The notes under the pieces: model-generated
The model's input: only the letters and a program-made list of their open reading frames with translations
What the model was told of the DNA's origin: nothing
The model's database searches: none
Program-made: the position numbers and the translations under genes
From: Candidatus Methylomirabilis oxygeniifera
GTDB taxonomy: Bacteria > Methylomirabilota > Methylomirabilia > Methylomirabilales > Methylomirabilaceae
NCBI GenBank assembly: GCA_000091165.1
Contig: FP565575.1
Span: forward strand, 2,280,001-2,312,000
Direction of reading: 5' to 3'
Length of the DNA: 32,000 nucleotides
Shown: one piece after another, positions 1,059 to 22,783 of the stretch
Position numbering within the stretch: position 1 is the stretch's first letter
Layout of the letters: every line of letters begins with the position of its first letter

Positions 1059-3128
1059 ATGACCCAAGACCTGTTGTTTGAGATCGGTATCGAGGAGATC
1101 CCTTCCGGTTACCTGACGCCGGCGTTGAAGGATCTGGCGACACAGGCGCGTCGCCTGTTCGAAGAGCACCGCATCGCCTTTACCGGCGTGCGCACATTCG
1201 GTACGCCTCGGCGCCTCACCCTGCATGTGGAGCGGCTGGACCAGAATCAAGGCGATCTGGTTCGCGAGGTGGTTGGGCCATCCAGAGCGGCCGCGTTCGA
1301 TCAGGAAGGCCGTCCGACCAAGGCTGCGCTTGGCTTCGCAAGGGGACAGGGCGTCCCGGTGGAGCAGCTCCGCGTGAAGACACTTGATCGGGGAGAGTAT
1401 GTTGTGGCTGCCATCGTCGAGCAGGGCGCGCGTCTGGACGAGATCCTGCCGGTTGTCCTGCCCCGTCTGATCACCTCGCTCTCCTTCCCGAAGTCGATGC
1501 GATGGGGACAAGGTGCGTTTCGGTTTGTCCGTCCGATCCGGTGGCTCGTTGCCCTGTACAGTGGCCGGGTGATTCCCTTTGAAATTGACGGGGTCATAAG
1601 CGGGAATAAGACGTGCGGCCATCGATTCCTGAGCCGAGGCCAGATCCGTGTTAGAAACTTCCAGGATTATATCGAAAAGCTGGAGGAGCGGTATGTCATC
1701 GTCAACCAGCACCGTCGCCGCGAGCTGGTGACACGGTTGGCCAAGGAGGCCGCAGCCAAAGTCGGCGGGAAGCCCGTGTTTGACGATGAGTTGGTGGAGA
1801 TGGTGGCCAGTCTGGTGGAATACCCTACCGCGGTGTGCGGTGGCTTCGAACAGGAGTATCTCAGCTTACCGCGTGAGGTGATCATGACGCCCATGCGGAA
1901 GCACCAGCGCTACTTCCCGGTGACGGACGATGCCGGCAAGCTCCTCCCCTATTTCGTGACAATCTCCAACATGAAGGCAAAGGATATGGGCCTGATTCGT
2001 GCCGGCAACGAACGGGTCCTCAGGGCACGATTGAAGGATGCAGCCTTCTTTTTTACGGAGGATCGCAGACTCGAGCTTCACGAGCGAGTTCCTCAACTGA
2101 GAGGGATTACCTTTCAGGAGCGACTTGGCACCATGCTCGAAAAGGTCGGTCGGCTGACGGAACTGACCGCCTACCTGGCCGAGCAGGTTGCCCCGCACCT
2201 TGCGCATGATGCCTGTCAGGCGGCTCAGTTGTGCAAGGCCGACCTCGTGACCACGATGGTCAAGGAGTTCCCGAGCCTGCAAGGGGTCATGGGCCGTGAA
2301 TATGCGCAGCTCTCCGGGGAACCTGCCGTTGTGGCCCAGGCGATTGAGGAACACTATCTCCCTCGTTTTTCCGGCGACAGGCTCCCGGAATCACTGGTTG
2401 GCGCCCTTGTGGGTATCGCCGATCGGCTCGACACCATCTGCGGCTGCTTCGGCATCGGACTCATCCCGACCGGATCGGAAGATCCGTACGCCCTCCGGCG
2501 ACACGCGCAAGGGATCATACAGATCCTTCTCAATGCAGGTATCGATCTGCCACTCTCACAGCCGATATACAAGAGCTTGGATCTCCTCAGTGATCGCGTG
2601 ACGCTCCCGCGTGAGCGTGTCGCACAAGAGGTTATGGAGTTTCTGGCGGCCAGACTCCAGGCGATCCTGATGGAACGGGGTGTACCCGGCGATCTCGTCG
2701 AGGCTGCCCTCTCCGTCGATGCAGAACGGGTCTCAGATGCCGGTAAACGCGCCGAGGCCCTGGCCACCTTCAGACGAGAGGCCGATTTTACAGAATTGGC
2801 GGCCGCCTTCAAGCGGGTTATCAGGATCCTGCCCAAGGACTTCTCGAAGCCGGTCGATCCACGGCGATTCGTCAGCAGCGCCGAGCGGGCGCTTCATGGC
2901 GAAGCAGCCACATTGCGGGCCGAAACGGAACCCCTTATGCAATCGGGCGACTATGTGCGCGCTCTGCAGCTCATCGCCGCGATCCGCCCTATTGTGGATA
3001 TGTTCTTCGAAGAGGTTCTGGTGATGGTGGAGGATCGGGACCTGCAGGACAACCGTTTGGCCATTCTGAAGGAGGTTGCAGACCTGTTTTGCGGGATTGC
3101 GAATTTCAGCAAGATTATGGCTTCGTAA
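1059..3128 (+). CDS. glyS: Glycine--tRNA ligase beta subunit
   Basis: 690-codon ORF 1056..3128, with the ATG at 1059. It has a typical GlyS N-terminus (QDLLFEIGIEEIPSGYL) and internal blocks (FGTPRRL, MRWG, AGNERVLRARL.DA.FF), and sits 25 nt after glyQ as in glyQS operons. Confidence 0.95.
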   Translation: MTQDLLFEIGIEEIPSGYLTPALKDLATQARRLFEEHRIAFTGVRTFGTPRRLTLHVERLDQNQGDLVREVVGPSRAAAFDQEGRPTKAALGFARGQGVPVEQLRVKTLDRGEYVVAAIVEQGARLDEILPVVLPRLITSLSFPKSMRWGQGAFRFVRPIRWLVALYSGRVIPFEIDGVISGNKTCGHRFLSRGQIRVRNFQDYIEKLEERYVIVNQHRRRELVTRLAKEAAAKVGGKPVFDDELVEMVASLVEYPTAVCGGFEQEYLSLPREVIMTPMRKHQRYFPVTDDAGKLLPYFVTISNMKAKDMGLIRAGNERVLRARLKDAAFFFTEDRRLELHERVPQLRGITFQERLGTMLEKVGRLTELTAYLAEQVAPHLAHDACQAAQLCKADLVTTMVKEFPSLQGVMGREYAQLSGEPAVVAQAIEEHYLPRFSGDRLPESLVGALVGIADRLDTICGCFGIGLIPTGSEDPYALRRHAQGIIQILLNAGIDLPLSQPIYKSLDLLSDRVTLPRERVAQEVMEFLAARLQAILMERGVPGDLVEAALSVDAERVSDAGKRAEALATFRREADFTELAAAFKRVIRILPKDFSKPVDPRRFVSSAERALHGEAATLRAETEPLMQSGDYVRALQLIAAIRPIVDMFFEEVLVMVEDRDLQDNRLAILKEVADLFCGIANFSKIMAS

Positions 3129-3146
3129 GCCTTTAGCCCTCAACGC

Positions 3147-3176
3147 GTTCGTTGCGTTTATTGGGTTCGTTGCGTT
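3147..3176. repeat. Direct 12-nt repeat GTTCGTTGCGTT, two copies (3147..3158 and 3165..3176)
   Basis: Read directly from the sequence in the glyS-PRT spacer. Confidence 0.8.
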
Positions 3177-3192
3177 CGGCGTATTGTGATCT

Positions 3193-3226
3193 TCGCTGCA
3201 CGCTATACGCTATACGCTGCACGCTC
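3193..3226. repeat. Heptanucleotide tandem repeat, about 5 units (TCGCTGC ACGCTAT ACGCTAT ACGCTGC ACGCTC)
   Basis: Read directly. Strict 7-nt register, ending 16 nt before the ATG at 3243. Confidence 0.9.
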
Positions 3227-3242
3227 ATTGTGAGGGGTATTG

Positions 3243-3893
3243 ATGAACGCAGAGATCTTGGAGCGGATCAACCGGGGTATCATCCTCAGGACCGGGGCGT
3301 ATCTGACAAACGATCACTTCGTCCTGCCCTCCGGTCGCCACACCCAGGAGTATGTGGAGAAGGCGTTGGCCACCACCGAGCCGGCCTTTACGGAAGGGCT
3401 GGGAGACGTGATTGCAAAACATTTCGCGGAAGAGCCGATCGATCTGATCCTGACTACCGGCTACGGTGCCTCGCTGCTGGGCCATTGTGTGGCGCGCGCC
3501 CATCCGTTGCGACCTCGCTTCATCTATGCCAACAAGCAACGCAACGACTCCGGCGTCAGTCAGGTCACGCTTCCGAGGGAATTCCGACAGTATTTTGTCG
3601 GCAACCCCAGGGTGCTGATCGTCGAAGACATTATGACCACCGGTGAGACGGTCAAGGGGCTCATTAAGCTCGTCAAATCATTGGGCGGAACGGTGAGCGG
3701 GATCGGGACGCTCTGGCGACGAATGCGAAAAGTGAATTTCAAATTCCCCTTTTTTACGCTGGTCGATCGGGAATTCCCCACATACACCCCGAAGGACTGC
3801 CCGATGTGTCGCAGAGGGATGCCGATCAATCAGGAGTTTCTAACAGTGCCCAGCCGGCAGAAGTCTCGTCGAGTCAGGGCTGGGGCTCGCTGA
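3243..3893 (+). CDS. Type I phosphoribosyltransferase family protein (orotate-PRT-like)
   Basis: ORF 3240..3893, ATG at 3243. It has the PRPP-binding loop VLIVEDIMTTGETV and a C-terminal CPMC motif. Substrate is not assignable by eye. Confidence 0.75.
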   Translation: MNAEILERINRGIILRTGAYLTNDHFVLPSGRHTQEYVEKALATTEPAFTEGLGDVIAKHFAEEPIDLILTTGYGASLLGHCVARAHPLRPRFIYANKQRNDSGVSQVTLPREFRQYFVGNPRVLIVEDIMTTGETVKGLIKLVKSLGGTVSGIGTLWRRMRKVNFKFPFFTLVDREFPTYTPKDCPMCRRGMPINQEFLTVPSRQKSRRVRAGAR

Positions 3894-4021
3894 CGGTCGT
3901 GCCCAGAACCCGCAATGCTGCCAGGCGCTTTCCGACCGTGGAAACCGCGACCGTCGAGTGGGACGAGTGCCGCCCCTCCGGAGAAGGACCTCCGACAGAA
4001 GGCGGCGCCTTCTCACATTCA

Positions 4022-4324
4022 ATGCAAGCGGCAGGCGGAGCATTCGAGCCCTTGCTTCCCTGTTCAAACCTCGACTGTCAAGACGGCGGGTTCGAGATCC
4101 TGGAAGCACTGGAATGGATGATCAGCAACCGGCGCACGGAGAAGACCGGGCTACTGGTCTGTATCGGGTGGGAACGTACAAAGGGCAGGCAGACAGAACC
4201 ATCGCCATGTACGCGGGCGATCAGCTATCAAATCAAACTGATCTATCGGAAGATCGACCGTGCCAGGACCCAACCAAAAAGAACGCACAAGGATAAAGAT
4301 GTGGTGAGGATACATGAGGCATAA
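4022..4324 (+). CDS. Hypothetical small protein (uncertain)
   Basis: Internal ATG of ORF 3806..4324 (MQAAGGAFEPLLPCSNLDCQDGGFEILEALEWM...). No recognisable family; kept only because the frame stays open in a gene-free gap. Confidence 0.25.
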   Translation: MQAAGGAFEPLLPCSNLDCQDGGFEILEALEWMISNRRTEKTGLLVCIGWERTKGRQTEPSPCTRAISYQIKLIYRKIDRARTQPKRTHKDKDVVRIHEA

Positions 4325-4358
4325 CGTCCACGTCACTCGCACCCAAGAGGAGACCTGT

Positions 4359-5087
4359 ATGATCAGCGGATTGAGGCGGATACCGGCGTATATCTGGCTG
4401 GCTATGTTCGCAATCCTGTCACCTGCCATATCATGGGCTGAGATCCTCCCTCAAGAGGCAGTGACGCTGGGGCGAGAGACTGAACTCATTGCGGTCCGCA
4501 CCCTCGCTTTCGCCGGCACAGAGGGCCCACCGGCAGCGGCAAGCGGGCAAAAACCAACCTTCCACCCCGAAGAAGGATTCCAATCGGGAACGTGGCATTT
4601 GGGCGTCAAGACCGGCGGTACCGACACTGTCAAGATTTTTGCGGGTAGGCACCCCGATGTTCAATTTGTCCCGGTCTTCTTCCAGATCGGCTATACGGTC
4701 ACCGATGTCCATGGCCCGTTCCCGGTTCGCGGGAGCCTGGAAGTCATCTTTGAGCCGACCCTCCTCATCACAACAAACCCGGAAACAGAGGTTGGAGGGG
4801 GCGCAAGCCTCCTCTTCCGCTATAATTTCGTAACGGGCACTCGGTGGGTGCCGTTCTTCGAGGTCGGCATCGGTATCCTCGACGCGGATCTGAACGTCCC
4901 ACGGGACCTCAACAGCCGGCTCAACTTTACCATTCTGGGCGGACCTGGAATCAATTACTTCCTGACCGATAACCTGGCTATTCTGGGACAAGTTGGTTTA
5001 CACCATATCTCGAATGCCGGCCGCAAAAGCCCGAACGTCGGCGTCAATTCGGTCATGGGTCTGCTGGGGGTCTCGTACTATTTCTAG
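4359..5087 (+). CDS. Outer-membrane beta-barrel protein, acyloxyacyl hydrolase / PagL-like lipid A deacylase family
   Basis: ORF 4314..5087. ATG 4359 is preceded by AAGAGGAG and encodes a signal peptide (LAMFAILSPAISWA). The protein ends in an OMP-type terminal Phe (GVSYYF) and has a HHISNAG (H-x-S-N) motif like the PagL catalytic pair. Confidence 0.6.
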   Translation: MISGLRRIPAYIWLAMFAILSPAISWAEILPQEAVTLGRETELIAVRTLAFAGTEGPPAAASGQKPTFHPEEGFQSGTWHLGVKTGGTDTVKIFAGRHPDVQFVPVFFQIGYTVTDVHGPFPVRGSLEVIFEPTLLITTNPETEVGGGASLLFRYNFVTGTRWVPFFEVGIGILDADLNVPRDLNSRLNFTILGGPGINYFLTDNLAILGQVGLHHISNAGRKSPNVGVNSVMGLLGVSYYF

Positions 5088-5091
5088 AACA

Positions 5092-5142
5092 AGCTCTCAG
5101 CAGTCAGCTAGACATCAGAAAAGCTGAGAGCTGGCTGCTGAG
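5092..5142. repeat. CAGC-rich interrupted palindrome between convergent genes
   Basis: AGCTCTCAGCAGTCAGC (5092..5108) is complementary to GCTGAGAGCT / GCTGGCTGCTGAG (5123..5142), giving two alternative pairings. There is no T-run. Confidence 0.7.
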
Positions 5143-5157
5143 CGATTCCCCCACGCG

Positions 5158-5529
5158 TTACTCTTTGCTGCCGCCGCGAACCCATTTGTTTGGTGTGCCG
5201 TCAAGAGGAGAGCTCTCGTCCGGTCGCCAGAGCACCGACTGCTCGATCTGCCTGGCAAGGGTAAAGTCCTTTTCGGTGATCCCACCGGCGGCGTGGGTCC
5301 TCAGCTTCACCCAGACCTTGCCCCATGTGACCTCCAGGTCCGGGTGATGCCAAGCGGCCTCGGCCAGGTAGGCAATCGTGTTGACCAACATCAGAGTGGT
5401 CGGCCAGCCGTCGGTGTTGAATTTTCTCCTGATCCATCGCCCCTCCAGATACCACCCCGGCAGCTCTTGCTTCAGGCGTTCGGCCACTTCCTCGTCCGGA
5501 AGGGCCGGATACTCTTTGGCTGTTGACAT
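5158..5529 (-). CDS. Pterin-4-alpha-carbinolamine dehydratase (PCD/DCoH family)
   Basis: 123-aa ORF with the PCD signature region (AEAAWHHPDLEVTWGKVWVKLRTH, GGITEKDFTLA). Confidence 0.85.
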   Translation of the reverse strand: MSTAKEYPALPDEEVAERLKQELPGWYLEGRWIRRKFNTDGWPTTLMLVNTIAYLAEAAWHHPDLEVTWGKVWVKLRTHAAGGITEKDFTLARQIEQSVLWRPDESSPLDGTPNKWVRGGSKE

Positions 5530-5682
5530 GGCCTCGCTCCTTTTTCCTCAATCAATGACGTGCTCGCCTCTTATTCGAAATGTACGGTAGGAATTTACAT
5601 CGGGCAAGCGAATTCTGAGGCCGGGATCGGGTCGACAATTGATGAGCAGGAGGACGTCTCTCCGGGATGGTAATCCCCCACG

Positions 5683-5729
5683 AAAAGAAAAACGCCCCAG
5701 CGATAGGATGCTGAGGCGTCCGCTTTTTT
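5683..5729. terminator. Bidirectional intrinsic terminator-like hairpin
   Basis: ACGCCCCAGC (5692..5701) pairs with GCTGAGGCGT (5710..5719) at 9 of 10 positions. It is flanked by an A-run (5683..5691) and a T-run (5724..5729), and lies about 45 nt downstream of the glpX stop on the minus strand. Confidence 0.6.
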
Positions 5730-5766
5730 GTTATGTGCGTCTGAGCGGGCCTGGAACTACCCTCTC

Positions 5767-6780
5767 CTAATGGTGTATCTGCTTATGCTTTACACCTTCG
5801 TAGCGGGTTCCGGCGATCTCTTTGAGGCGTTTCAGATCGTGCCTTGCCTCCATCCATCGTATCCCTCCGGAGACCGAGCGCATCATGAGGGAGGTTGTTC
5901 GCGCGTAACCTCCAGTATAGCGAACCCCTCGGAGCAACTCGCCGTCCGTGATACCCGTGATAGCCACGAACACATTGCTTCCCTTACAGAGGTCATCGGC
6001 AGTTAAGATGCGATCCAAATCGTGACCCTCCGCCTCGAGGATCTGCCGTTCTTGTTCATCTCTCGGCCAGAACCTGCATTGCATCTGACCGCCAAGACAC
6101 TTCAACGCGCAGGCAATGAGTACCGCCTCCGGAGAACCCCCGGTTCCCATAAGCACATCGATCCCCGTGTCTTCCTCCATTGCCGCCATCACGCCTGGGG
6201 CAACGTCCCCCTCACTGATCAGTTTGATCCGGGCTCCAGCCTCTTTCACCTCTTTAATGAGGCGCTCGTGGCGTGGTCGGTCAAGTATGACCACCGTCAG
6301 GTCATCAACCTCCCGGCCCTCAGCCTGAGCAATCCGTTGCAGATTCTCTTTGACGGGCGCGTTGATGTTGATGGCGCCGGCGGCCCGAGGCCCGACAACA
6401 ATCTTATCCATGTAGGCAAGCTGCGTGGAAAACAGCGTATTCCGATCGGCAAGCGCAGCCACAGAGATCGCGCCCGGTCGGCCGTTGGCGAGGAGCGTGA
6501 CCCCGTCAACCGGATCTACGGCGACATCAAGAGCCGGAGCGGAGCCTGTGCCGACCCGCTCTCCCACCTGCAGCAGGGAGGCCTGACCTTTCTGCTCCTC
6601 ACCAATCACCACCGTACCGTCGATCTCGAACGAGCTCAAGGCATAGCGCATCGCGTCAACGGCGGCCTGATCAGCGGCGTCACGGTCGCGTCTGCCCATC
6701 AGTCGAGCCGCCGCCAAAGCGGCAGCCTCTGTGACCCTGCTGAGCTCGAGAGCCAGGTTCCGATCCATTAGCTCGGTCAT
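5767..6780 (-). CDS. glpX: Fructose-1,6-/sedoheptulose-1,7-bisphosphatase, class II
   Basis: ORF 5767..6972. The true start is probably ATG 6780 (MTELMDRNLALEL..RVTEAAALAAA), preceded by GGGGAGGG. Typical GlpX blocks are present (LDVAVDPVDGVT, GTGGSPEAVLIACALKCLGG). Confidence 0.9.
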   Translation of the reverse strand: MTELMDRNLALELSRVTEAAALAAARLMGRRDRDAADQAAVDAMRYALSSFEIDGTVVIGEEQKGQASLLQVGERVGTGSAPALDVAVDPVDGVTLLANGRPGAISVAALADRNTLFSTQLAYMDKIVVGPRAAGAININAPVKENLQRIAQAEGREVDDLTVVILDRPRHERLIKEVKEAGARIKLISEGDVAPGVMAAMEEDTGIDVLMGTGGSPEAVLIACALKCLGGQMQCRFWPRDEQERQILEAEGHDLDRILTADDLCKGSNVFVAITGITDGELLRGVRYTGGYARTTSLMMRSVSGGIRWMEARHDLKRLKEIAGTRYEGVKHKQIHH

Positions 6781-6799
6781 AGTATGGTTTCCCTCCCCT

Positions 6800-6875
6800 G
6801 AAGAAGGGTGGAGGGTAGAGGGTTGAGATCTATTTTTCTTCTGGCCTTTACCCTTTACCCTAAACCCTATACCCT
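6800..6875 (-). repeat. Heptad-repeat spacer with complementary G-rich and C-rich arms (tkt-glpX intercistronic)
   Basis: The minus-sense RNA reads AGGGUAU AGGGUUU AGGGUAA AGGGUAA AGG, then about 21 nt, then ACCCUCU ACCCUCC ACCCUUC. This was read directly (plus-strand arms 6800..6828 and 6845..6875). Confidence 0.85.
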
Positions 6876-6880
6876 GTTTT

Positions 6881-8902
6881 TTATGCCAGGAGTTCCATGG
6901 CTCTGGATACGACATGCTCGGTCGTAAAGCCGAATTGCTGCAAGAGGACCTGATACGGGGCTGAGGCTCCAAAGCGTGTCATGCCGATCACCCCTCCGCG
7001 CAGACCGACGTAACGGTGCCAACCGTGAGGAGAGCCCGTCTCAATGGCCAGACGGGCGGTTACCGCCGGGGGAAGCACCTCGTCCCGATACGCCTCCGGC
7101 TGCCGATCAAATAGTTCCCAGCTCGGCATGCTGACAACGCGAGCCGGGATGCCTTGGTCGACCAGTCGTCCCCACGCCTCCAGGGCCAGGGACACCTCCG
7201 ACCCGGTCGCGATAAGAATGACGCGCGGATGACCCTGATCGGCATCGGCCAGGATATAGGCTCCCTTCAAAAGCAGTTCGGCAGGCGGGAATTTCGTCCG
7301 GTCGAGAGTCGGGAGCTTCTGCCTGGTCAGCGCCAGCACCACCGGTCCGCTACGGTGTTCCAGGGCGGCGCGCCAGGCGACCGCTGTTTCTGTTGCGTCG
7401 GCAGGGCGGATGACCGTAAGGTTGGGTATGGCCCGGAGCGACGACAAATGCTCAATCGGCTGGTGGGTAGGGCCATCTTCGCCCAAACCGATACTGTCAT
7501 GGGTAAAGACATAGATCACATGGATATGCGACAGCGCCGCCACCCGGATCGCGGGGCGCACGTAGTCGGAAAAGACGAGGAAGGTACCCCCATACGGGAT
7601 CACCCCCTGGTGCAGTGCCATACCGTTGAGAATCGAACCCATCGCGTGCTCTCGAACGCCAAAGTGAAAGTTCCGGCCCCCGGGGCTTGACCTCTGAAAG
7701 TCGCCGCCTCCCTTCAGGTAGGTATTGTTCGACGGGGTCAAGTCGGCTGAGCCGCCGATGAGGGTCGGCAGGGATGAGGCAATCGCATTGAGCACCTTGC
7801 CGGAGGCCTCACGGGTCGCGAGGCCTCCGCCGGCAGGGGTGAAGATCGGGATCTTCTCGGCCCAACCCTCGGGGAGCTGCCCACTCATCACCCTGTTCCA
7901 TTCGTTTGCGAGTTCGGGATACGCGGCAGCGTAGGCATCGAATTTGGTTTGCCACTCTGCTTCCCGGGTACGACCTCGCTGCAGGGCCTCTCGAAAGTGA
8001 GCCAGCGCCTCATCAGGGATATAGAACGTGGGCTCAAGCGGCCAGCCCAACGCCTCCTTGGTCAGTCGTATCTCCTCATCTCCCAGAGGCGACCCGTGGG
8101 CCTCCGACGTATCCTGCTTATTCGGGCTGCCATAGGCGATATGAGTCCTGGCCATGATGAGCGATGGGCGATCAGATTCGGCCTGAGCCGCACTGATCGC
8201 AGCCTCGATCCCCTTCACGTCGTTGCCGTCTACGCGCTGGACATGCCACCCGTAGGCCTCAAAGCGTTGTCCGACATTTTCAGTAAAGGCCATGTCGGTG
8301 CTGCCGTCAATGGTAATCCGGTTGTCGTCGTACAGGTAGATAAGCTTGCCCAAGCCAAGATGACCGGCAAGCGAGGCCGCCTCAGAGGTGATTCCTTCCA
8401 TAAGGTCGCCGTCGCTCACGATGGCATAGGTGTAGTGGTCAACAATCGGGTAACCCGATCGGTTGAAGTGATGTGCTAGAAATCGCTCGGCGATCGCCAT
8501 CCCGACGCCGTTGCCGAAACCCTGGCCAAGTGGACCGGTCGTCGTCTCCACGCCAGGTGTCATACCATGTTCCGAATGCCCTGGGGTTCGGCTACCCCAC
8601 TGGCGGAACTGCTTCAATTCATCAAGGGAGAGGTCGTAGCCGGTCAGATGAAGGAGACAATACAGCAGCATGCAACCATGACCAGGCGACAGAATAAATC
8701 GATCGCGATTCGGCCATGACGGATCGGTCGGATTATGGCTGAGCGCGCGCGTCCAAAGAGTGTAGGCCATGGCGGCGGCCCCCATCGGCAGCCCAGGATG
8801 CCCGGAGTTCGCCTTCTGAACCCCGTCCATAGCCAGCGTTCTAATGGTATTGATGCACAACTGGTCGAGCGTTTCCTGAACGTTTTTCACTGATCCCCCC
8901 AT
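6881..8902 (-). CDS. tkt: Transketolase
   Basis: 673-aa ORF with canonical Tkt motifs ([40 protein letters not shown]). Confidence 0.95.
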
Positions 8903-17050: not shown

Positions 17051-18070
17051 GGGGTCAAATCTTTTGTTGATTGATAAGCGCCTGAACCTGTTCGACCCGC
17101 TCTCTGAATGGCCCATCCACCTTGATCGCTGAACGAACTGCGTGGCAGGCCCATCCCACTACACCGTAACTCCCAACTCCAAAATGCTCCGCCGTCTCTG
17201 CGAGCGTCAAGTCACACAACCGCTTGACCAGATACATCGCTGCTTTTCTCGCCTCGCTTGCCTGTCCTCGACCCCCGCGCACCAGATCCTCCACAGCCAC
17301 CTGATACACTTGGGCCACCTCCCTCAGTACTTCATCAACCCCGGGCCGCACCTCCCTCCGCTCATACCGAGGATGCTCAGCCGTCAGTCGGCTGACATGC
17401 TGGCGGATCCGCTCAACAAATCGCTCCCCGCCCAACACCGGACTCCTCCGACTCCGAGCATAAAACTCTCGAATCCCGTCGTCGTTGCCGGATCGCACAA
17501 ATTGGTGAAACGCTCTTGGATCACTGCTGAATCGTTCCAAGATCTCTCCGGTCCTGAGCCATTCGGGAAGTGCCTTGCCCCGGATGTAGAAACGATGACT
17601 ACTCCAACGATACGCTTCTGGCTCCCTCACGAATCCTCCCTCCACGGGGTTCACATGAATGTACCGCACGACCGCAGTCAAGTACTCGTCCGCATCAATT
17701 AGCAGCGCTTTATATCGGCCCCGAAAAAGCGAGCCGTCGCTCCGGTGAGCACGGTTGAACCGCTGCGTGTACAGGCCATCCACATGATGCATGATGCGGG
17801 AGAGATTCCCCTCCGGTGTCCTCAGACACACATGGTAGTGATTGTCCATCAGACAGTACGCGAACACCTCCACACCCCACAGCTCATGCGTCTCACTGAG
17901 CGTGCGGAGACATTGCTCATCGTCCGCTTTGCCCAGGAAGGTCTTCCGGCGGGAGGTGCCCCGGTTCATCACATGATACACCGCCCCCGGAAATTCGATC
18001 CGCAATGGCCGTGACATACGGGAATCACGTCGCAGGGCAACGACAATTAGTCAACAACAGATTTGACCCC
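17051..18070 (-). mobile_element. RAYT/IS200-like unit bounded by 23-bp imperfect inverted repeats
   Basis: GGGGTCAAATCTTTTGTTGATTG (17051..17073) matches the reverse complement of TAGTCAACAACAGATTTGACCCC (18048..18070) at about 20/23 positions (17 of the terminal 18). The repeats enclose the single transposase-like gene. Confidence 0.6.
17055..18017 (-). CDS. IS200/IS605-type Y1 (HUH) transposase-like protein, REP-associated (RAYT-like), with C-terminal DnaA-domain-IV-like HTH
   Basis: 320-aa ORF with the HUH motif (DNHYHVCL) and the catalytic-Tyr block (VVRYIHVNPV). The C-terminal part (ARKAAMYLVKRLCDLTLAETAEHFG) resembles the DnaA C-terminal helix-turn-helix. Confidence 0.8.
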   Translation of the reverse strand: MSRPLRIEFPGAVYHVMNRGTSRRKTFLGKADDEQCLRTLSETHELWGVEVFAYCLMDNHYHVCLRTPEGNLSRIMHHVDGLYTQRFNRAHRSDGSLFRGRYKALLIDADEYLTAVVRYIHVNPVEGGFVREPEAYRWSSHRFYIRGKALPEWLRTGEILERFSSDPRAFHQFVRSGNDDGIREFYARSRRSPVLGGERFVERIRQHVSRLTAEHPRYERREVRPGVDEVLREVAQVYQVAVEDLVRGGRGQASEARKAAMYLVKRLCDLTLAETAEHFGVGSYGVVGWACHAVRSAIKVDGPFRERVEQVQALINQQKI

Positions 18071-18312
18071 TTTACTACACGCCCACCTATGCCTCGTGGC
18101 TCAATCAGGTGGAGATCTGGTTCAATCTTATCACGCAGCAGGCGATCCGTCGGGGCACCTTTCGCAGCGTGAAGGACCTCATCACGAAGATCAACGCGTT
18201 CGTCGCTCACTATAATCCGACCTCACAACCGTTCGTCTGGACTGCTACGGCTGAGTCGATCCTGCAGAAGATCGAACGACTTTGTAAAGCTATTCGCGGG
18301 ACACGACACTAG
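18067..18312 (+). pseudogene. 3-prime remnant of an IS630-family DDE transposase gene
   Basis: The frame opens right after a TGA at 18064. It reads PLYYTPTYASWLNQVEIWFNLITQQAIRRGTFRSVKDLI..I..FV..YN....PFVWTATAESIL, the conserved C-terminal end of IS630 transposases including the catalytic E. No N-terminal part is present. Confidence 0.75.
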
Positions 18313-19877
18313 TTCTTCATCGACTGATTGCAGTACGGGTGAGTCAAGTCGCAGTTGTCCACTGCACCGTTGCCGCCCTCGCGCCTTCTGCTGACGTGAT
18401 CATACGAAACAGATTTCGCTGGATCCAGGTAACCGCCGCATATCGAGCACTTCACCGTATTCTCAAGTGCTTTCCGAATGAACGTTTCGCTTTTCACGTC
18501 GTCGGAGAACGACTGGGACTCAACGGGTGCACTGCCCACAAACACTTTGCCCGCCAAACCGCTTAGTGTAACGATGTCCTCGTTTGTGATCGGTGCTTCG
18601 CTATCTAACCGGTTAATCAACGCCTCAAGAAAGCCAGCGTACTTCTCGACACGGTGCCTGCTAACGTATCCTTGCAGAATAGCCGCGATAGTGGGTTTGT
18701 ACTCAACCAACGCTTTTTCCAGTCGCGAGCGGCACCCGGAGAGCTTCCGGAAGAAGGTAGGGTCGTTGTTCAGCAACTTCTTCTTGAGCATCAGAGCCGT
18801 CCCCATGAACATCGGCGCTTGATGTTGTCCCGAAGGTCCATAGAAATAGACTGCAGGATGAAGACCGAGACTTCCGTGATCGTTTCCTGTTATGCGGCTC
18901 GCAAGTTCCCATATCTGCTTCAGTGCTTCTGTAGTGCCACTGCCGTCCGCGTCATCAGCCTGATCCGGAACCGTCTTCGGATGCCCCTGCTGATTGCGAC
19001 AGGCGATGAGCACGAAATCTAAGAGAGTCCTGAGCGCAACGCGTACGCCTCTGGCCCCTCCCAGTGGGAGATCGAGCGTCTTGACCGGTGTGTTCAGGTC
19101 CGGCTCAAATATTAGCTGATGGATGATACGTGCTTTGTCTTCAATCAGGGCCGAAGTCTCTGGGGAAAACGCCGACCAATATTTGTGGCCGGTTCCGGCG
19201 CGGATGATCGCACGTGCGGCGATGGAAATGGGTTTGTGTCTCGTCTTGAGCAGTAGTTCTTCAATGTCGTCTAGCGGTGTCCCTTCCGTGTTGATCTTGA
19301 AGAAGGCGGATTCGGCTTTGTCAGCATTACCATTAACCCACTGAATCGAGAGCGCTCGTGATATGACGGCATTAAATTTACGTTTGTCTTCGTTGTCGAG
19401 ACCTGGTTGCGCAAGTGTCGCCTGCACGTGCTTGAAACTGCCAATGGTGTCGTTAACCAGTTTTCGCGTTTTGTCAGCTACCTTCTTCTGAACGGCAGGA
19501 ATATTCCTATCAAAGAACATGAGCGAGATGGGTCCGTCTCCATAGTCATCCTCAACCCAAGCCCGCAAGACACTGAGGCGGTGACCACCGTCGATCACGA
19601 ATATGTTGGTCGGTGATTTCCAGAGAATGACCGATGGGATGAGGTCGCCATTGACAAAACACTCAAGGAGAGAAAGAACTTGCGCGGGAGTCCAGTGGTT
19701 TGTTTCGCGCTGAAAGTCCGGCTTCCGTAAGTTGGGTCCGACAAGTGCACCGGGAGTAAAATCGCGCAACGAAACGGACGGCACCATGTCGTACGTCTGT
19801 TCTGCCTCAGGCTGAGTGGCGAAATCAGCGCGCAGAATCATCGCGTCGAGGTTGACGAGTTGCTTAAGGTTCGACAT
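18309..19877 (-). CDS. ParB/DUF262-like N-terminal domain fused to a C-terminal HNH nuclease motif (GmrSD-like architecture)
   Basis: 522-aa ORF with RBS GGAGGA. The N-terminus has PDFQRE..W, then VIDGGHRLSVL, then FFKINTEGTPLDDIE, a DUF262/ParB-Srx-type motif order. The C-terminus is CSICGG...YDHV...GGNGAVDNCDLTHPYCNQ (HNH). Its stop shares a CTAG with the IS630 remnant stop. Confidence 0.75.
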   Translation of the reverse strand: MSNLKQLVNLDAMILRADFATQPEAEQTYDMVPSVSLRDFTPGALVGPNLRKPDFQRETNHWTPAQVLSLLECFVNGDLIPSVILWKSPTNIFVIDGGHRLSVLRAWVEDDYGDGPISLMFFDRNIPAVQKKVADKTRKLVNDTIGSFKHVQATLAQPGLDNEDKRKFNAVISRALSIQWVNGNADKAESAFFKINTEGTPLDDIEELLLKTRHKPISIAARAIIRAGTGHKYWSAFSPETSALIEDKARIIHQLIFEPDLNTPVKTLDLPLGGARGVRVALRTLLDFVLIACRNQQGHPKTVPDQADDADGSGTTEALKQIWELASRITGNDHGSLGLHPAVYFYGPSGQHQAPMFMGTALMLKKKLLNNDPTFFRKLSGCRSRLEKALVEYKPTIAAILQGYVSRHRVEKYAGFLEALINRLDSEAPITNEDIVTLSGLAGKVFVGSAPVESQSFSDDVKSETFIRKALENTVKCSICGGYLDPAKSVSYDHVSRRREGGNGAVDNCDLTHPYCNQSMKN

Positions 19878-19926
19878 AGAGATCCTCCACTGCGTTACAT
19901 GCGTTCGCTTCCTTCATAAGGGCACA

Positions 19927-20587
19927 ATCGGGATAGGGAGGTGCCTCGCAACCCCTCTCCCCCCACACTACCGTACATACGGATCACGTACCACGGCGGT
20001 TCGGTTGATTACTTCGGCAAGACTGCCGACCGGGGGTTCGGACTCCTCTATCCACCATACACATCGCTCTTTCGAGCAGCTACGTTTCCGCCAGCTTTAT
20101 GCACACTGGACACAGGGCTTACTGACCCTTTCAACCGTTCGGGCCTTCGGCACAAGACGTTGCGGTTCGGCCTATCTGTTTCTCCACCTTTCGGTTCAGG
20201 AGTGCCTCACTCGCCTCGCCTGCCTCTCACCGACTCTGCCCTCTGCTGACTTCTGCACCGCGGTCAGGAAGCCTCTCGACCCCCTCAGTTATTGCGGGAC
20301 GCGTTGCAGACCTCCCGGGGTAAGACACAGAGCGTTCCATGCGTAGACGCCGGATTATAAAGCACGCCCCGTTGCAGATGGAGGACTTCGCGGTCACGTG
20401 CCCGCTCGTCCCGGGTGGTCCCACACCTCCTATCCGGTTCCTGTTCATCGCCCCGCGCGTTTGGATTGGACTTCCTTCAGACCCCACCTCACGGTGACGC
20501 CCTTGCCCTTCTCCTCGCCTTCGGCTCTGCGAGAACCTGGCGCGGGGACTTTCACCTCGCTCGCTCTGTGTCATGCCTGGCACACAC
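19927..20587 (-). mobile_element. ORF-less group II intron-like ribozyme (about 660 nt)
   Basis: The minus-sense RNA starts GUGUG(UG)CC. It contains GGUGAAAGUCC and GAAGUCAGCAGAGG strings typical of intron domain I-III regions. A domain-V-like hairpin is present: GCCGUGGUACG-UGAUC-CGUAUGUACGGU. The domain-VI-like 3-prime end is GGCACCUCCCUAUCCCGAU, with a candidate bulged A 7 nt before a terminal AU. No RT-length ORF is present. Confidence 0.6.
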
Positions 20588-20591
20588 GGTA

Positions 20592-20628
20592 CGCATGTGC
20601 GGTCGGCGTAGCCGGTCCGAATCATGCG
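20592..20628 (-). terminator. Interrupted stem-loop 4 nt after the restriction-gene stop and 4 nt before the intron 5-prime end
   Basis: Minus-sense CGCAUG-AUU-CGG-A-C-CGGC-UAC-GCCG-A-CCG-CA-CAUGCG, about 13 bp in total. There is no U-run. The position matches the stem-loop targets used by class C group II introns. Confidence 0.5.
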
Positions 20629-20632
20629 AATG

Positions 20633-21469
20633 CTAGGCTAGCTGCTTGATCCAGTTCTTAACCAGCACAGGTATTCTGGTGATGACTTCCCGGCCGACGA
20701 GGACTTCATCAACATAGCCCATGTGGAGCATATCGACAATCCGGCAGAGGTACGATTTTCCACAATCCCACCATGTGAACCGAGCATCAATCATAAGGTA
20801 GTGAAGAACGTTAATATTTTCAGCCGCCGCGAGCTCTTCGATCTCCATCCCATCCAACAATGTTTCATAGACACCATCAGCGACACGGCTACCAAAGGTG
20901 GTTGTGTAGTAGTATTCCTTAACTTCCCAAACCGCGACCGGATTGATAACGGAGGGGAAAGCACCATCCATGCGGCGGGCGAATGTTCGGAGAGGGAAGC
21001 CGCCCGCGGCGACTGTGGTCAACGCGCGAGGATCATGATCGCAGGCTTTGCCATCAGCATTCGCCTCAATCAGCATGTTAACCATGCCGGTGAGAAAAGC
21101 GGGAGCTTTCATGGCGCCCTTCTGCTTGTTCATCGGCAAAGGGCAGGTGGGTTTGAATCTACGCTTCAAGCGAGTGAATTCTTGTTTCGCTTGGGCCGCA
21201 TCCATGAGATTGGGCTCGACGTGCTGATGAAGCAAGTCCCGGCGATACGTGAAGTACTCCAACAGGACATCCCATGTGATATTTCCGTCAGGAAGAGCCC
21301 TGGCCAGGGCCTCGGTTTTCAGGCCGAGCGCCTGGAGAGCGGCCACTACCGCCTCCTCAGTCGGTACGGTAATCTGGCCCCTGCTTGCATATCCGCACTC
21401 CTGGCCGATTAGACGAACAAGGGCCCAGAAGTGCTTGGGAAGCTGGATAAACCTCTTGTCAGGCGTCAT
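20633..21469 (-). CDS. Type II restriction endonuclease candidate (PD-(D/E)xK-like)
   Basis: 278-aa ORF overlapping the C gene by 11 nt and divergent from a Dam-class methyltransferase. It has a candidate catalytic block MDGAF-x11-VWEVKEYYYTTTFGSR (D...E-x-K). The family was not confirmed. Confidence 0.6.
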   Translation of the reverse strand: MTPDKRFIQLPKHFWALVRLIGQECGYASRGQITVPTEEAVVAALQALGLKTEALARALPDGNITWDVLLEYFTYRRDLLHQHVEPNLMDAAQAKQEFTRLKRRFKPTCPLPMNKQKGAMKAPAFLTGMVNMLIEANADGKACDHDPRALTTVAAGGFPLRTFARRMDGAFPSVINPVAVWEVKEYYYTTTFGSRVADGVYETLLDGMEIEELAAAENINVLHYLMIDARFTWWDCGKSYLCRIVDMLHMGYVDEVLVGREVITRIPVLVKNWIKQLA

Positions 21470-21704
21470 GATGTGGTAGATAATCCTTAAGAAAAGTCGC
21501 GGGATCTATTCCCAAGGCTCGGCAAACGTCAATGGTTTCAACGAACGATAAGAGTCTTTCACCCGCCTCGTACTTGCTGACGAAAGACTGGGGCTTGCCA
21601 AGGGTTGCCGCCAGGTCGGCCTGTGTCAGTCCGCGATCTTTTCTTTTCTGGCGGAGCAAAGTCCGAAAGTGCTCCTCGTTATTGGCATATCTGTTGTATT
21701 TCAT
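21459..21704 (-). CDS. XRE-family HTH controller (C) protein of the R-M system
   Basis: 81-aa ORF with an HTH (RGLTQADLAATLGKPQSFVSKYEAGERLLS). It lies immediately upstream of, and overlapping, the endonuclease gene, which is the classical C-R arrangement. Confidence 0.75.
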   Translation of the reverse strand: MKYNRYANNEEHFRTLLRQKRKDRGLTQADLAATLGKPQSFVSKYEAGERLLSFVETIDVCRALGIDPATFLKDYLPHHDA

Positions 21705-21711
21705 GTCTCCG

Positions 21712-21741
21712 AGTATAGAAGATGCTTGACAATAATCCCAA
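21712..21741 (-). promoter_or_regulatory. Putative C/R promoter (TTGGGA-18-TATACT) giving a near-leaderless C transcript
   Basis: The reverse complement of 21736..21741 is TTGGGA and of 21712..21717 is TATACT. Only 7 nt separate the -10 box from the ATG at 21704. Confidence 0.4.
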
Positions 21742-22654
21742 ATCAGGATATTGTGACGGTATGAAGGTTAAAGAGGATACCCTTGATCTTTTTTACGGCA
21801 TGGAGTTTCAGCACGTGCCGCCATTCAGGACTCAACTTCTCAAATGGATAGGAAACAAGCAACGCTTTGCCCATAAGATCGCTTCCTACTTCCCCAAGGA
21901 TATCCGCACCTACCGGGAGCCGTTTCTTGGAAGCGGGGCAGTGCTCGCGGCTCTCCAACCCCCCAATGCCGTTGGTTCAGACATCTTCGGCCCACTCATG
22001 GAGATATGGCGATGTCTTCACGAATCCCCCGAGAAACTGACGGATTGGTACCGAACCCGGTACGTTGAATTTACGACGGTAGGAAAAACTGAGGGTTATG
22101 AAGGTATCAAGGCAAGATACAACGCCAACCCAAATGGTCCCGATCTCCTCTTCATTTGCCGGAGCTGTTACGGTGGCGTTGTTCGGTTCAGAAAGAGTGA
22201 CGGGTACATTTCCACGCCTTGTGGCGTCCATGATCCGATCAATCCCAAGTCATTTGCCCAACGCGTCGAGATTTGGAGAAGGAGGACAGCTGGAGCGAAC
22301 TTCCGGCACATGGATTTTGAGGAGGCCATGTCATTGGCCCACGAGAAGGATCTCGTGTATTGCGACCCGCCCTATGTATGCAGTCAGACAATTCTATACC
22401 AAGGACAGGGCTTTTCCTTGGATCGTTTGATGCAGACCATCGCAGACTGCAAGAAACGTGGTGTTAGGGTAGCGTTGAGTATCGATGGGAAGAAGAAGTC
22501 AGGTCGGGTTGACTGCGAACTCAGGATCCCTGATAGCCTCTTTGAGCGCGAGGTATTCCTCGATTGCGGCAGAAGCATGCTGCGACGCTTCCAGAGGGGG
22601 GGTGAATCTCTTGAAGATGAAATCGTCCATGATCGGCTTCTTCTCACCTACTGA
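21722..22654 (+). CDS. Dam-class (D12, alpha-group) N6-adenine DNA methyltransferase
   Basis: It has LKWIGNKQRF, motif I EPFLGSGAV and motif IV YCDPPYV in the alpha order. The in-frame ATG at 21761 is the more likely start if the promoter call at 21726 is right. Confidence 0.9.
   Translation: MLDNNPKSGYCDGMKVKEDTLDLFYGMEFQHVPPFRTQLLKWIGNKQRFAHKIASYFPKDIRTYREPFLGSGAVLAALQPPNAVGSDIFGPLMEIWRCLHESPEKLTDWYRTRYVEFTTVGKTEGYEGIKARYNANPNGPDLLFICRSCYGGVVRFRKSDGYISTPCGVHDPINPKSFAQRVEIWRRRTAGANFRHMDFEEAMSLAHEKDLVYCDPPYVCSQTILYQGQGFSLDRLMQTIADCKKRGVRVALSIDGKKKSGRVDCELRIPDSLFEREVFLDCGRSMLRRFQRGGESLEDEIVHDRLLLTY
21726..21754 (+). promoter_or_regulatory. Putative M promoter (TTGACA-17-TATTGT) overlapped by an imperfect palindrome
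   Basis: TTGACA is at 21726..21731 and TATTGT at 21749..21754. The half-sites ACAATAATCC (21729..21738) and GGATATTGT (21746..21754) are inverted copies with a 1-nt indel. ATG 21761 lies 6 nt after the -10 box. Confidence 0.4.
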
Positions 22655-22783
22655 TTTCATGGCTCAACGCCGCGCGGATGAGCGGCGGAAGCGGAGTCGA
22701 GCGTGCTCGGCGGAGCTGTAGTCTGCTCGATCCGCTGGTTGGCCGTAGCGAAGCGGAGGCAAGGGGCACCGGCTTAGCCCCGC

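Follow-up and report, generated by a model that had tools for sequence, protein, structure and literature searches.

The 32,000-nt window analysed here (FP565575.1, positions 2,280,001 to 2,312,000 of the Candidatus Methylomirabilis oxygeniifera genome, hereafter M. oxyfera) carries, on its minus strand, a type II restriction endonuclease (REase) gene followed by a gene for a GmrSD-like protein with DUF262 and HNH domains, and the intergenic spacer between the two is largely occupied by a group II intron of class C (IIC), an ordinary member of a known family. The intron has no open reading frame (ORF) of its own and interrupts none. Read along the minus strand, the TAG stop codon of the REase gene is followed by CAUU, a hairpin (20628..20592) and UACCGU, then by the intron (GUGUGCCAGG...CCUAUCCCGAU) and by UGUGCCC, which opens the 49 nt that lead from the 3' end of the intron to the AUG of the GmrSD-like gene (19877). 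A first-pass annotation, made from the letters alone, had placed an ORF-less group II intron between these genes, in the same orientation as both; the covariance-model and comparative data below support the assignment, and the minus-strand sequence bears out the orientation.

At gathering threshold, an Rfam scan returned a single match in the whole window, to RF02001 (group-II-D1D4-3) at 20498..20325 (−), covering the full model at 107.7 bits (E = 2e-21; gathering score 32); the first-pass annotation had proposed such a check against group II models. Two further models, RF01998 for domains II and III (D2/D3) and RF00029 for domains V and VI (D5–D6), gave matches only with permissive filters and below their gathering scores; for RF01998 the window copy scores 25.2 bits (gathering 35), and relatives score 54, 38.8 and 31.6. 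The element is collinear from end to end with bona fide introns that encode a reverse transcriptase (RT), at 76–89% identity in D1–D3 and 89–90% in D5–D6. Its ends match the group II consensus (5' GUGYG, 3' AY) and coincide with those of the RT-encoding relatives. Every minus-strand feature noted at first pass is present: the purine-rich strings (GGUGAAAGUCC at 20556..20546 and GAAGUCAGCAGAGG at 20253..20240), a D5-like hairpin with a bulge (19999..19968), and a 3' terminus, ...CCUCCCUAUCCCGAU, that stops at 19927 and is preceded by a bulged A (19934) at a distance of 7 nt. The intron sequence is the same, and 659 nt long, in six independent M. oxyfera assemblies, which agree fully (100% identity) over as much as 21.5 kb of the locus, and it is therefore not an assembly artefact. 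A chance or unrelated structured RNA that happens to resemble group II motifs would fit the D5–D6 match below gathering (18.1 versus 40 bits) and a minimum free energy (MFE) z-score of only −2.0 for the whole element. This reading is, however, refuted by the RF02001 match over the full model and by the collinearity, at 76–90% identity, with RT-encoding introns that share the same splice-site motifs, and we give it practically no credence.

The 5' boundary needed closer definition, since GUGUG occurs at both 20587 and 20585 in a GU repeat. The best annotated relatives are RT-encoding introns that lie directly after aadA1 in class 1 integrons of IncC and other plasmids, and the intron of pR148 (NC_019380; ltrA, WP_015063576.1) belongs to the same lineage as the window intron. 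The empty junction between the aadA1 attC and the 3' conserved segment, CTCAAGCGT/TAGATGC (here and below, a slash marks the insertion point), is 100% identical in more than 1600 plasmids and fixes the start of the aadA1-adjacent intron (GUGUGUCGGG...CCCGAU) at the second GU of the repeat. Because the window intron aligns to it, its own 5' splice site most likely lies at 20585, and not at 20587, on sequence comparison; the 5' exon would then end ...ACCGU, and the expected ligated-exon junction is ...GCGUACCGU/UGUGCCCUUAUG.... Thus, the GUGUG start proposed at first pass is retained as a motif and moves by 2 nt, which puts it 6 nt past the hairpin, not 4, and the spacing to the downstream start codon, short as described, is 49 nt rather than 50. 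The TACC 5' exon was misplaced: the aadA1 attC and about 60 YGU/U sites indicate ...ACCGU, with an intron-binding site 1 (IBS1) of approximately CGU. Like the window copy, the aadA1-adjacent intron has a 31-nt D5 with a UGAUC loop, the same 3' end and a GT/T insertion point in the attC top strand; unlike it, it is 1838 nt long, encodes a 444-amino acid RT/maturase and has an intact D5–D6 (RF00029, 38.1 bits; −43.2 kcal/mol). One full-length relative next to aadA1, L001, matches the window intron over positions 1–360 at 76% and over D5–D6 at 89.5%, with an identical 3' end.

The hairpin upstream of the intron, correctly described at first pass as an interrupted 13-bp stem-loop, is the MFE fold of this segment (−16.3 kcal/mol), begins 4 nt past the REase stop codon (TAG, 20635..20633) and lies 6 nt upstream of the intron. 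A strict regular-expression search of the window found no canonical attC. This proved to be a false negative due to degenerate boxes, and was overturned by comparison with a sister genome (GCA_053537595.1; locus L088), in which a restriction–modification (R-M) module 97% identical to window 22670..20591 ends in an intron-free attC: the REase stop lies inside GCCTAAC, and the same hairpin and GTGACGT/TAGAC follow. Beyond it come a small gene of another kind and one more attC of canonical form (GTCTAAC...GTTAGGC); neither the intron nor the GmrSD gene is present downstream of the same attC in L088. Because an intron-free canonical attC follows the same REase gene there, the window stem-loop is, by this comparison, a slightly degenerate integron attC, with an R'' box GCCTAGC and an R' box GT/TGTGC split by the intron. 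Of the two kinds of target offered at first pass, attC or terminator, the first is borne out, and the intrinsic-terminator reading was rejected (no U-tract, no terminator-like call). The R'' box carries the REase stop codon in both genomes, as GCCTAAC (TAA) at ~4470–4476 of L088 and as GCCTAGC (TAG) at 20632–20638 of the window, a single-base difference that weakens the R'' consensus yet keeps the stop codon.

The same site recurs throughout the family. A D5 scan of species-representative genomes yielded 46 loci in many phyla, and a metagenome scan with the 5' 28-mer of the intron yielded 29 others, from a collection in which the window locus is absent; together these give about 75 loci and ~60 distinct insertion sites. 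The junction reads YGU/intron/U at ~60 sites, and the first 3' exon base is U at nearly all family sites. At most of them, RYYYAAC lies ~50–60 nt upstream, followed by a GC-rich hairpin and by GT/TRRRY spanning the junction; invariance is confined to positions −1 to −3 of the 5' exon (YGU, with C or U at −3) and to +1 of the 3' exon (U). A same-strand ORF ends at the R'' box in 29 of 35 family sites; the window intron runs in the direction of its REase and GmrSD neighbours, and L001 in that of aadA1. On these alignments, the lineage enters the attC top strand at YGT/T, within the R' box, and shares the orientation of the cassette genes. Complete copies measure ~1.9 kb, and their intron-encoded proteins (IEPs) carry RVT_1 and GIIM domains only, that is, they lack an endonuclease domain (En-less). 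Two more distant plasmid matches (H24 and H15) are ordinary class C insertions outside integrons and were of no help in a comparison with classical IIC-attC introns.

How the intron would recognise this site is partly visible in the family alignment. No intron column covaries with exon positions −4 to −7 (no IBS2 signal), and a search for exon-binding sites (EBS) 1 and 3 by covariation with exon bases failed, IBS1 and IBS3 being invariant. A hairpin loop in D1 nevertheless offers a candidate EBS1: its ACG (20399..20397) is near-invariant in the family, its stem covaries, and it is likely to pair with YGU, since C or U at exon position −3 can both pair with G. The same loop holds a palindrome, CACGUG (window 20395–20400, minus strand; intron 186–191), that is also near-invariant in the family; pairing between palindromic loops underlies dimerisation in some HYERs, a group of ORF-less IIC ribozymes considered below.

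The RNAalifold consensus of the family alignment (23 members, 5' 410 nt) has double compensatory changes in 52 of its 102 predicted pairs, which supports D1 and D2. All 48 family D5s are 31 nt long and consist of lower and upper helices of 9 and 3 bp, a 2-nt bulge and a UGAUC loop, and D5 starts with CCGCCGU, containing a CGC triad, in the window copy and at least 40 relatives. IIC introns have CGC rather than AGC as the catalytic triad of D5. The hairpin-adjacent target, the 3-nt IBS1, the 1-nt IBS3, the CGC triad and the En-less IEPs of the relatives together argue for class C. The class C insertion on the 3' side of a stem-loop envisaged at first pass is supported. Features of the locus are collected in Table 1.

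Table 1. Coordinates, strand and supporting evidence for the features of the intron locus (positions in the window)
Feature	Position	Strand	Evidence or remarks
ORF-less class C (IIC) group II intron	19927..20585	−	659 nt, GUGUG...CCCGAU; Rfam RF02001, alignment to relatives, empty aadA1 attC
Domain I (approximate)	20315..20580	−	Intron 6–271; RNAalifold consensus, many compensatory pairs
Candidate EBS1 hairpin GCGG-GCACGUGA-CCGC	20390..20405	−	Loop ACG complementary to 5' exon YGU
Domain II (approximate)	20248..20314	−	Intron 272–338; strong family covariation; distal hairpin disrupted in this copy
J2/3 motif and domain III (approximate)	20186..20253	−	Motif GAAGUCAGCAGAGG invariant in family alignment
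Domain IV without ORF (approximate)	20000..20185	−	Alignment to L034; no RT remnant
Copy-specific distal D4 segment	20011..20133	−	Intron ~453–575, 123 nt
Domain V, CGC triad	19968..19999	−	Two private changes: extra G opposite bulge, C.A mismatch at triad partner
Domain VI	19927..19965	−	Bulged A at 19934, 7 nt from 3' splice site; G.A mismatch in distal helix
attC of R-M cassette, 5' exon side	20586..20638	−	R'' GCCUAGC (20638..20632), hairpin 20628..20592, UACC, GU of R'
3' exon start UGUGC, rest of R' box (GU/UGUGC)	19922..19926	−	U19926 is the IBS3 candidate
GmrSD_N (DUF262) and HNH gene	18309..19877	−	Pfam GmrSD_N 3.9e-11, weak HNH match
Type II restriction endonuclease gene (DUF7690 and DUF7687)	20633..21469	−	Pfam; PADLOC REase_II E = 1.6e-62
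Helix-turn-helix controller (C) protein gene of R-M module	21459..21704	−	Pfam HTH_3 1e-12
Dam-type (D12) N6-adenine methyltransferase gene, divergent from C and REase genes	21722..22654	+	Pfam MethyltransfD12; PADLOC MTase_II 8e-66
Preceding attC-like site GGCCAAC...GTTGAGC, R-M cassette start (approximate)	22672..22745	−	Comparison with L088

The loss of the ORF can be traced by alignment to a full-length relative, L034: intron positions 1–452 align to L034 1–452 and positions 576–659 to L034 1818–1900, and the L034 ORF (577–1806) is almost exactly the part missing from the window copy. As stated at first pass, there is no RT ORF in the window: tblastn with a related IEP found neither an ORF nor a remnant in the element or the 32-kb window. 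A remnant within domain IV (D4) was rejected, that search and a three-frame translation of D4 both being empty, and ORFs of the intron region have no Pfam match. The distal part of D4 is specific to this copy; blastn found no match to it in ~20 related elements, and its 20-mer is absent from the 29 metagenome loci. The ORF-less form seen in the window thus appears, from these comparisons, not to have spread to other sites. Elsewhere in the family, ORFs have been lost in several ways. Crude internal deletions produced L014 (from the L001 type) and L005 (from the L024 type); a precise ORF deletion, at a site with an identical 5' flank, separates L079 (1045–1743) from L085 (2416–4353), of which L079 lacks 608–1845; an ORF-less D4 variant is common to L017, L046 and L056b, from NC10, Acidobacteria and another metagenome-assembled genome (MAG); and on one contig, L056, a full-length and an ORF-less copy (2425–4440 and 6457–7135) lie 2 kb apart. 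Loss of the ORF is therefore recurrent and independent within the lineage, and suggests that ORF-less forms persist or spread. A different kind of change affects two full-length family members on two contigs of the NC10 MAG MFD03726: L036 (4532–6047, minus strand) and L011 (~4719–6233) share one and the same insertion of ~1.5 kb, placed precisely where D5 and D6 adjoin. The insertion codes for an IS110-family transposase with a frameshift (DEDD_Tnp_IS110, 2e-16; Transposase_20, 4e-17) and looks like an insertion sequence that specifically targets the D5/D6 junction of the intron.

Compared with its relatives, the ribozyme of the window copy is eroded. Among the 48 family D5s, it alone has an extra G opposite the D5 bulge and an A for G opposite the first base of the triad. 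Its RF00029 match extends over the full model and ends at 19927, and its 18.1 bits compare with 38.1 and 37.4 bits in relatives (37–38 bits for L034 and L001). With an MFE of −28.4 kcal/mol (z = −0.7), its D5–D6 is 35th of 36 in a family whose median is −41.7, whereas intact relatives reach −42 and −43 kcal/mol (z = −4.4 and −5.8). Eight consensus pairs in D1–D2 are mismatched, against 0–1 in intact clade members and in the ORF-less L079 and L017. They comprise pairs 8/269, 29/41, 129/246, 166/223 and 170/220 in D1, and 288/296, 289/295 and 282/328 in D2, where the window copy reads GUCCC/AUAAC and its relatives GUCCC/GGGAC. Given the D5/D6 lesions and the broken D1/D2 pairs, the window copy is probably a weakened or dead ribozyme. 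The first-pass annotation had taken the shortness of D5 as a sign of a decayed or unusual variant; the length is a family trait, and it is the private lesions in D5/D6 that speak for decay.

These lesions bear on whether the RNA might have been kept for a function of its own. HYERs are described, in the portions of PMC12990946 and PMC11754743 that deal with the work of Liu et al. (Science 2024), as ORF-less IIC introns of ~0.6 kb that hydrolyse RNA and DNA, HYER1 measuring 637 nt. By analogy, the window element resembles them in its ORF-less IIC architecture, its size and its short target-recognition sequence, and it could be a domesticated ribozyme of this type, retained as a hydrolytic, sequence-guided endonuclease acting on RNA or single-stranded DNA, for example on a hairpin followed by YGU/U, possibly for defence or cassette dynamics. 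Defence genes flank the locus, copies without an ORF turn up repeatedly in different phyla, some of which (L079 and L017, with 0–1 mismatches) have kept their pairing fully intact, and L017, L046 and L056b share an ORF-less D4 lineage. By contrast, HYERs were chosen for demonstrated hydrolytic activity, and the window copy is known by sequence alone and has a D5–D6 that is the worst or near-worst in the family; it sits exactly at the homing site, as passive insertion predicts, has no predicted promoter of its own, and its D4 form was not found elsewhere. Domestication of this copy therefore seems to us very doubtful.

Transcription of the locus was assessed with a simple promoter and terminator scan, a crude tool built for the sigma-70 consensus that has no calibration for promoters of NC10 bacteria. 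It placed a single minus-strand sigma-70-like site, at 21741..21712, in the promoter region of the C gene; from ~21712 to the start of the GmrSD gene the scan found no minus-strand sigma-70-like promoter or terminator, and it found no outward promoter in the intron. Co-transcription of the intron with the cassettes is thus plausible. This would allow a splicing-gated operon, a form of the gating suggested at first pass, in which the GmrSD-like gene is read only by read-through from the R-M module and removal of the intron by a maturase supplied in trans sets the amount of functional mRNA. The co-orientation of the intron with both genes would suit such a gate, as would that of the family at large, whose members are generally co-oriented with cassette genes and so normally transcribed with them. 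Set against this, the intron is intergenic and neither ORF needs splicing to be intact, the ribosome-binding site and start codon of the GmrSD gene, placed 49 nt past the 3' splice site, are left untouched, the lesions in D5/D6 point to inefficient splicing, the intron occupies no more than the usual homing site of its family (attC GT/T), as at ~60 unrelated sites, and the promoter scan lacks calibration for this phylum. We therefore regard a splicing gate as unlikely. A bolder proposal would combine both ideas: ORF-less attC-targeting IIC introns would be maintained HYER-like ribozymes, and the window copy an RNA device that either cleaves a hairpin followed by YGU/U in trans or couples the expression or immobilisation of both cassettes to a maturase. 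Its chances appear to us very slim.

The locus is instead very probably explained by a non-autonomous, ORF-less IIC copy at the normal attC homing site of its lineage, which is probably a weakened passenger in need of a trans-acting maturase. Drawing on the family and on class C biology, the intron ribonucleoprotein would recognise the single-stranded attC hairpin together with the 3-nt IBS1 (YGU, by the ACG loop) and the 1-nt IBS3 (U), reverse-splice into the attC strand and then be copied by the intron-encoded RT. The window copy, lacking an RT, would either have been mobilised by an IEP in trans or have arrived at full length and lost its ORF in place, for which L079 and L085 provide a likeness. 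Its removal from RNA at the present day would require the maturase of a full-length copy at another genomic location. For M. oxyfera FP565575, a full-length IIC-attC intron whose IEP is CBE67152 has been listed (Leon et al. 2010, Table 3, PMC3001079), and ORF-less introns of bacteria are nearly always accompanied by related IEPs (PMC4424553); together with the neighbouring full-length and ORF-less copies on L056, this makes a trans-acting maturase plausible. A search with RT homologs and contig look-ups did not recover a resident full-length M. oxyfera intron and returned relatives from other MAGs, at ~80–84% identity. In a separate contig, L053 (Logan ERR13927216), the sequence breaks inside the intron and starts at intron position 183, which is compatible with, and hints faintly at, a second genomic copy sharing the 5' part of the intron. 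Meanwhile, the main effects of the window copy would be passive: it would separate the REase and GmrSD genes by a structured spacer of 659 nt, and the split R' box should block integrase-mediated separation of the two cassettes, probably freezing their junction.

Several points weigh against this account. The window D1–D3 is without a private substitution at any well-conserved column, for which reason 'heavily decayed pseudogene' would be too strong a description; most of the window mismatches are A.C and tolerable, so that the ribozyme core may still work; and we infer the catalytic effect of the D5 changes from sequence. Co-transcription is taken only from the crude promoter and terminator scan, and the case for a cognate maturase in this M. 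oxyfera strain from PMC3001079. There is also no convincing attC for the GmrSD unit, so that only the R-M unit can firmly be called part of a 'cassette array'.

For that unit, the comparison with L088 provides both boundaries. The module is 97% identical between window 20586–22671 and L088:2438–4517, which lie in different genomic contexts; at the upstream boundary the attCs of the two genomes differ (GTTGAGC/C in the window, GTTAGGC/C in L088) and the sequence is identical afterwards. Because attCs bound the module in both genomes, the three genes (methyltransferase, C protein and REase) appear to form a mobile integron-type cassette. Neither the called genes with Pfam matches in 21.5 kb of the locus nor the annotated ORFs of the window include an integrase, and the locus is at most similar to a cluster of attC sites lacking an integrase (CALIN-like). 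In L088 (4535–6620), the attC of the REase gene is succeeded by a cassette for a 62-amino acid DUF4177-like protein with a canonical attC, and then by genes for a 213-amino acid protein of unknown function and Cas1, so that the cassettes there adjoin a CRISPR adaptation gene. In the window, the GmrSD-like gene is immediately followed by a gene for a 320-amino acid protein with an IS200-like Y1 transposase domain and a DnaA C-terminal helix-turn-helix (RAYT-like; 17055–18017, minus strand), which stands next to rlmKL at the margin of the cassette region. The GmrSD-like protein is also encoded on Candidatus Methylomirabilis oxyfera contigs (ENA 'Methylomirabilis_oxyfera_contig_6'; NCBI GCA_009026205.1).

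Among known systems, the closest likeness is to the IIC-attC introns (S.ma.I2, E.c.I7 and Kl.pn.I1), which share class C, insertion in attC and the recognition of a short IBS1 and an IBS3 next to a hairpin, as well as, in the full-length relatives of the window intron, an En-less RT/maturase; this likeness is one of target and class features. IIC-attC introns insert in integron attCs, and also in CALINs and outside integrons. Classical members are described as occupying the attC bottom strand at TTGT/T in the R'' box, opposite to the cassettes, and as carrying outward promoters (PMC3001079, PMC7923331). By contrast, the window intron lies at YGT/T in the top-strand R' box, co-oriented with the genes, and has neither a predicted Pout-like promoter nor an IEP; the bottom-strand TTGT/T arrangement described for the IIC-attC lineage, opposite to the cassettes, is not that of this copy, nor that of its family at 29 of 35 sites. 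With bacterial ORF-less introns that are spliced by an IEP in trans, such as those of cyanobacteria (PMC4424553), it shares the lack of an IEP, the reported presence of a related full-length intron in the genome and the dependence on a maturase in trans, but those introns are mostly IIB/CL and lie inside genes, whereas this one is a IIC intron in an intergenic attC.

The importance of the element is modest, and it reveals no new mechanism. For annotation, it accounts for a 750-nt 'empty' intergenic gap and leads to the recognition of the R-M module as a mobile three-gene cassette. The NC10 methanotroph provides a cleanly delimited natural case of a class C intron that lacks an IEP and occupies an attC separating two defence cassettes. 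In its family, repeated and near-exact loss of the RT ORF has supplied the kind of material that was mined for HYER-type ribozymes. The use of the top strand of attC, in the orientation of the cassettes, contrasts with the textbook description of IIC-attC introns and would mean that introns of this lineage are transcribed with cassette mRNAs and are able to splice out of them.

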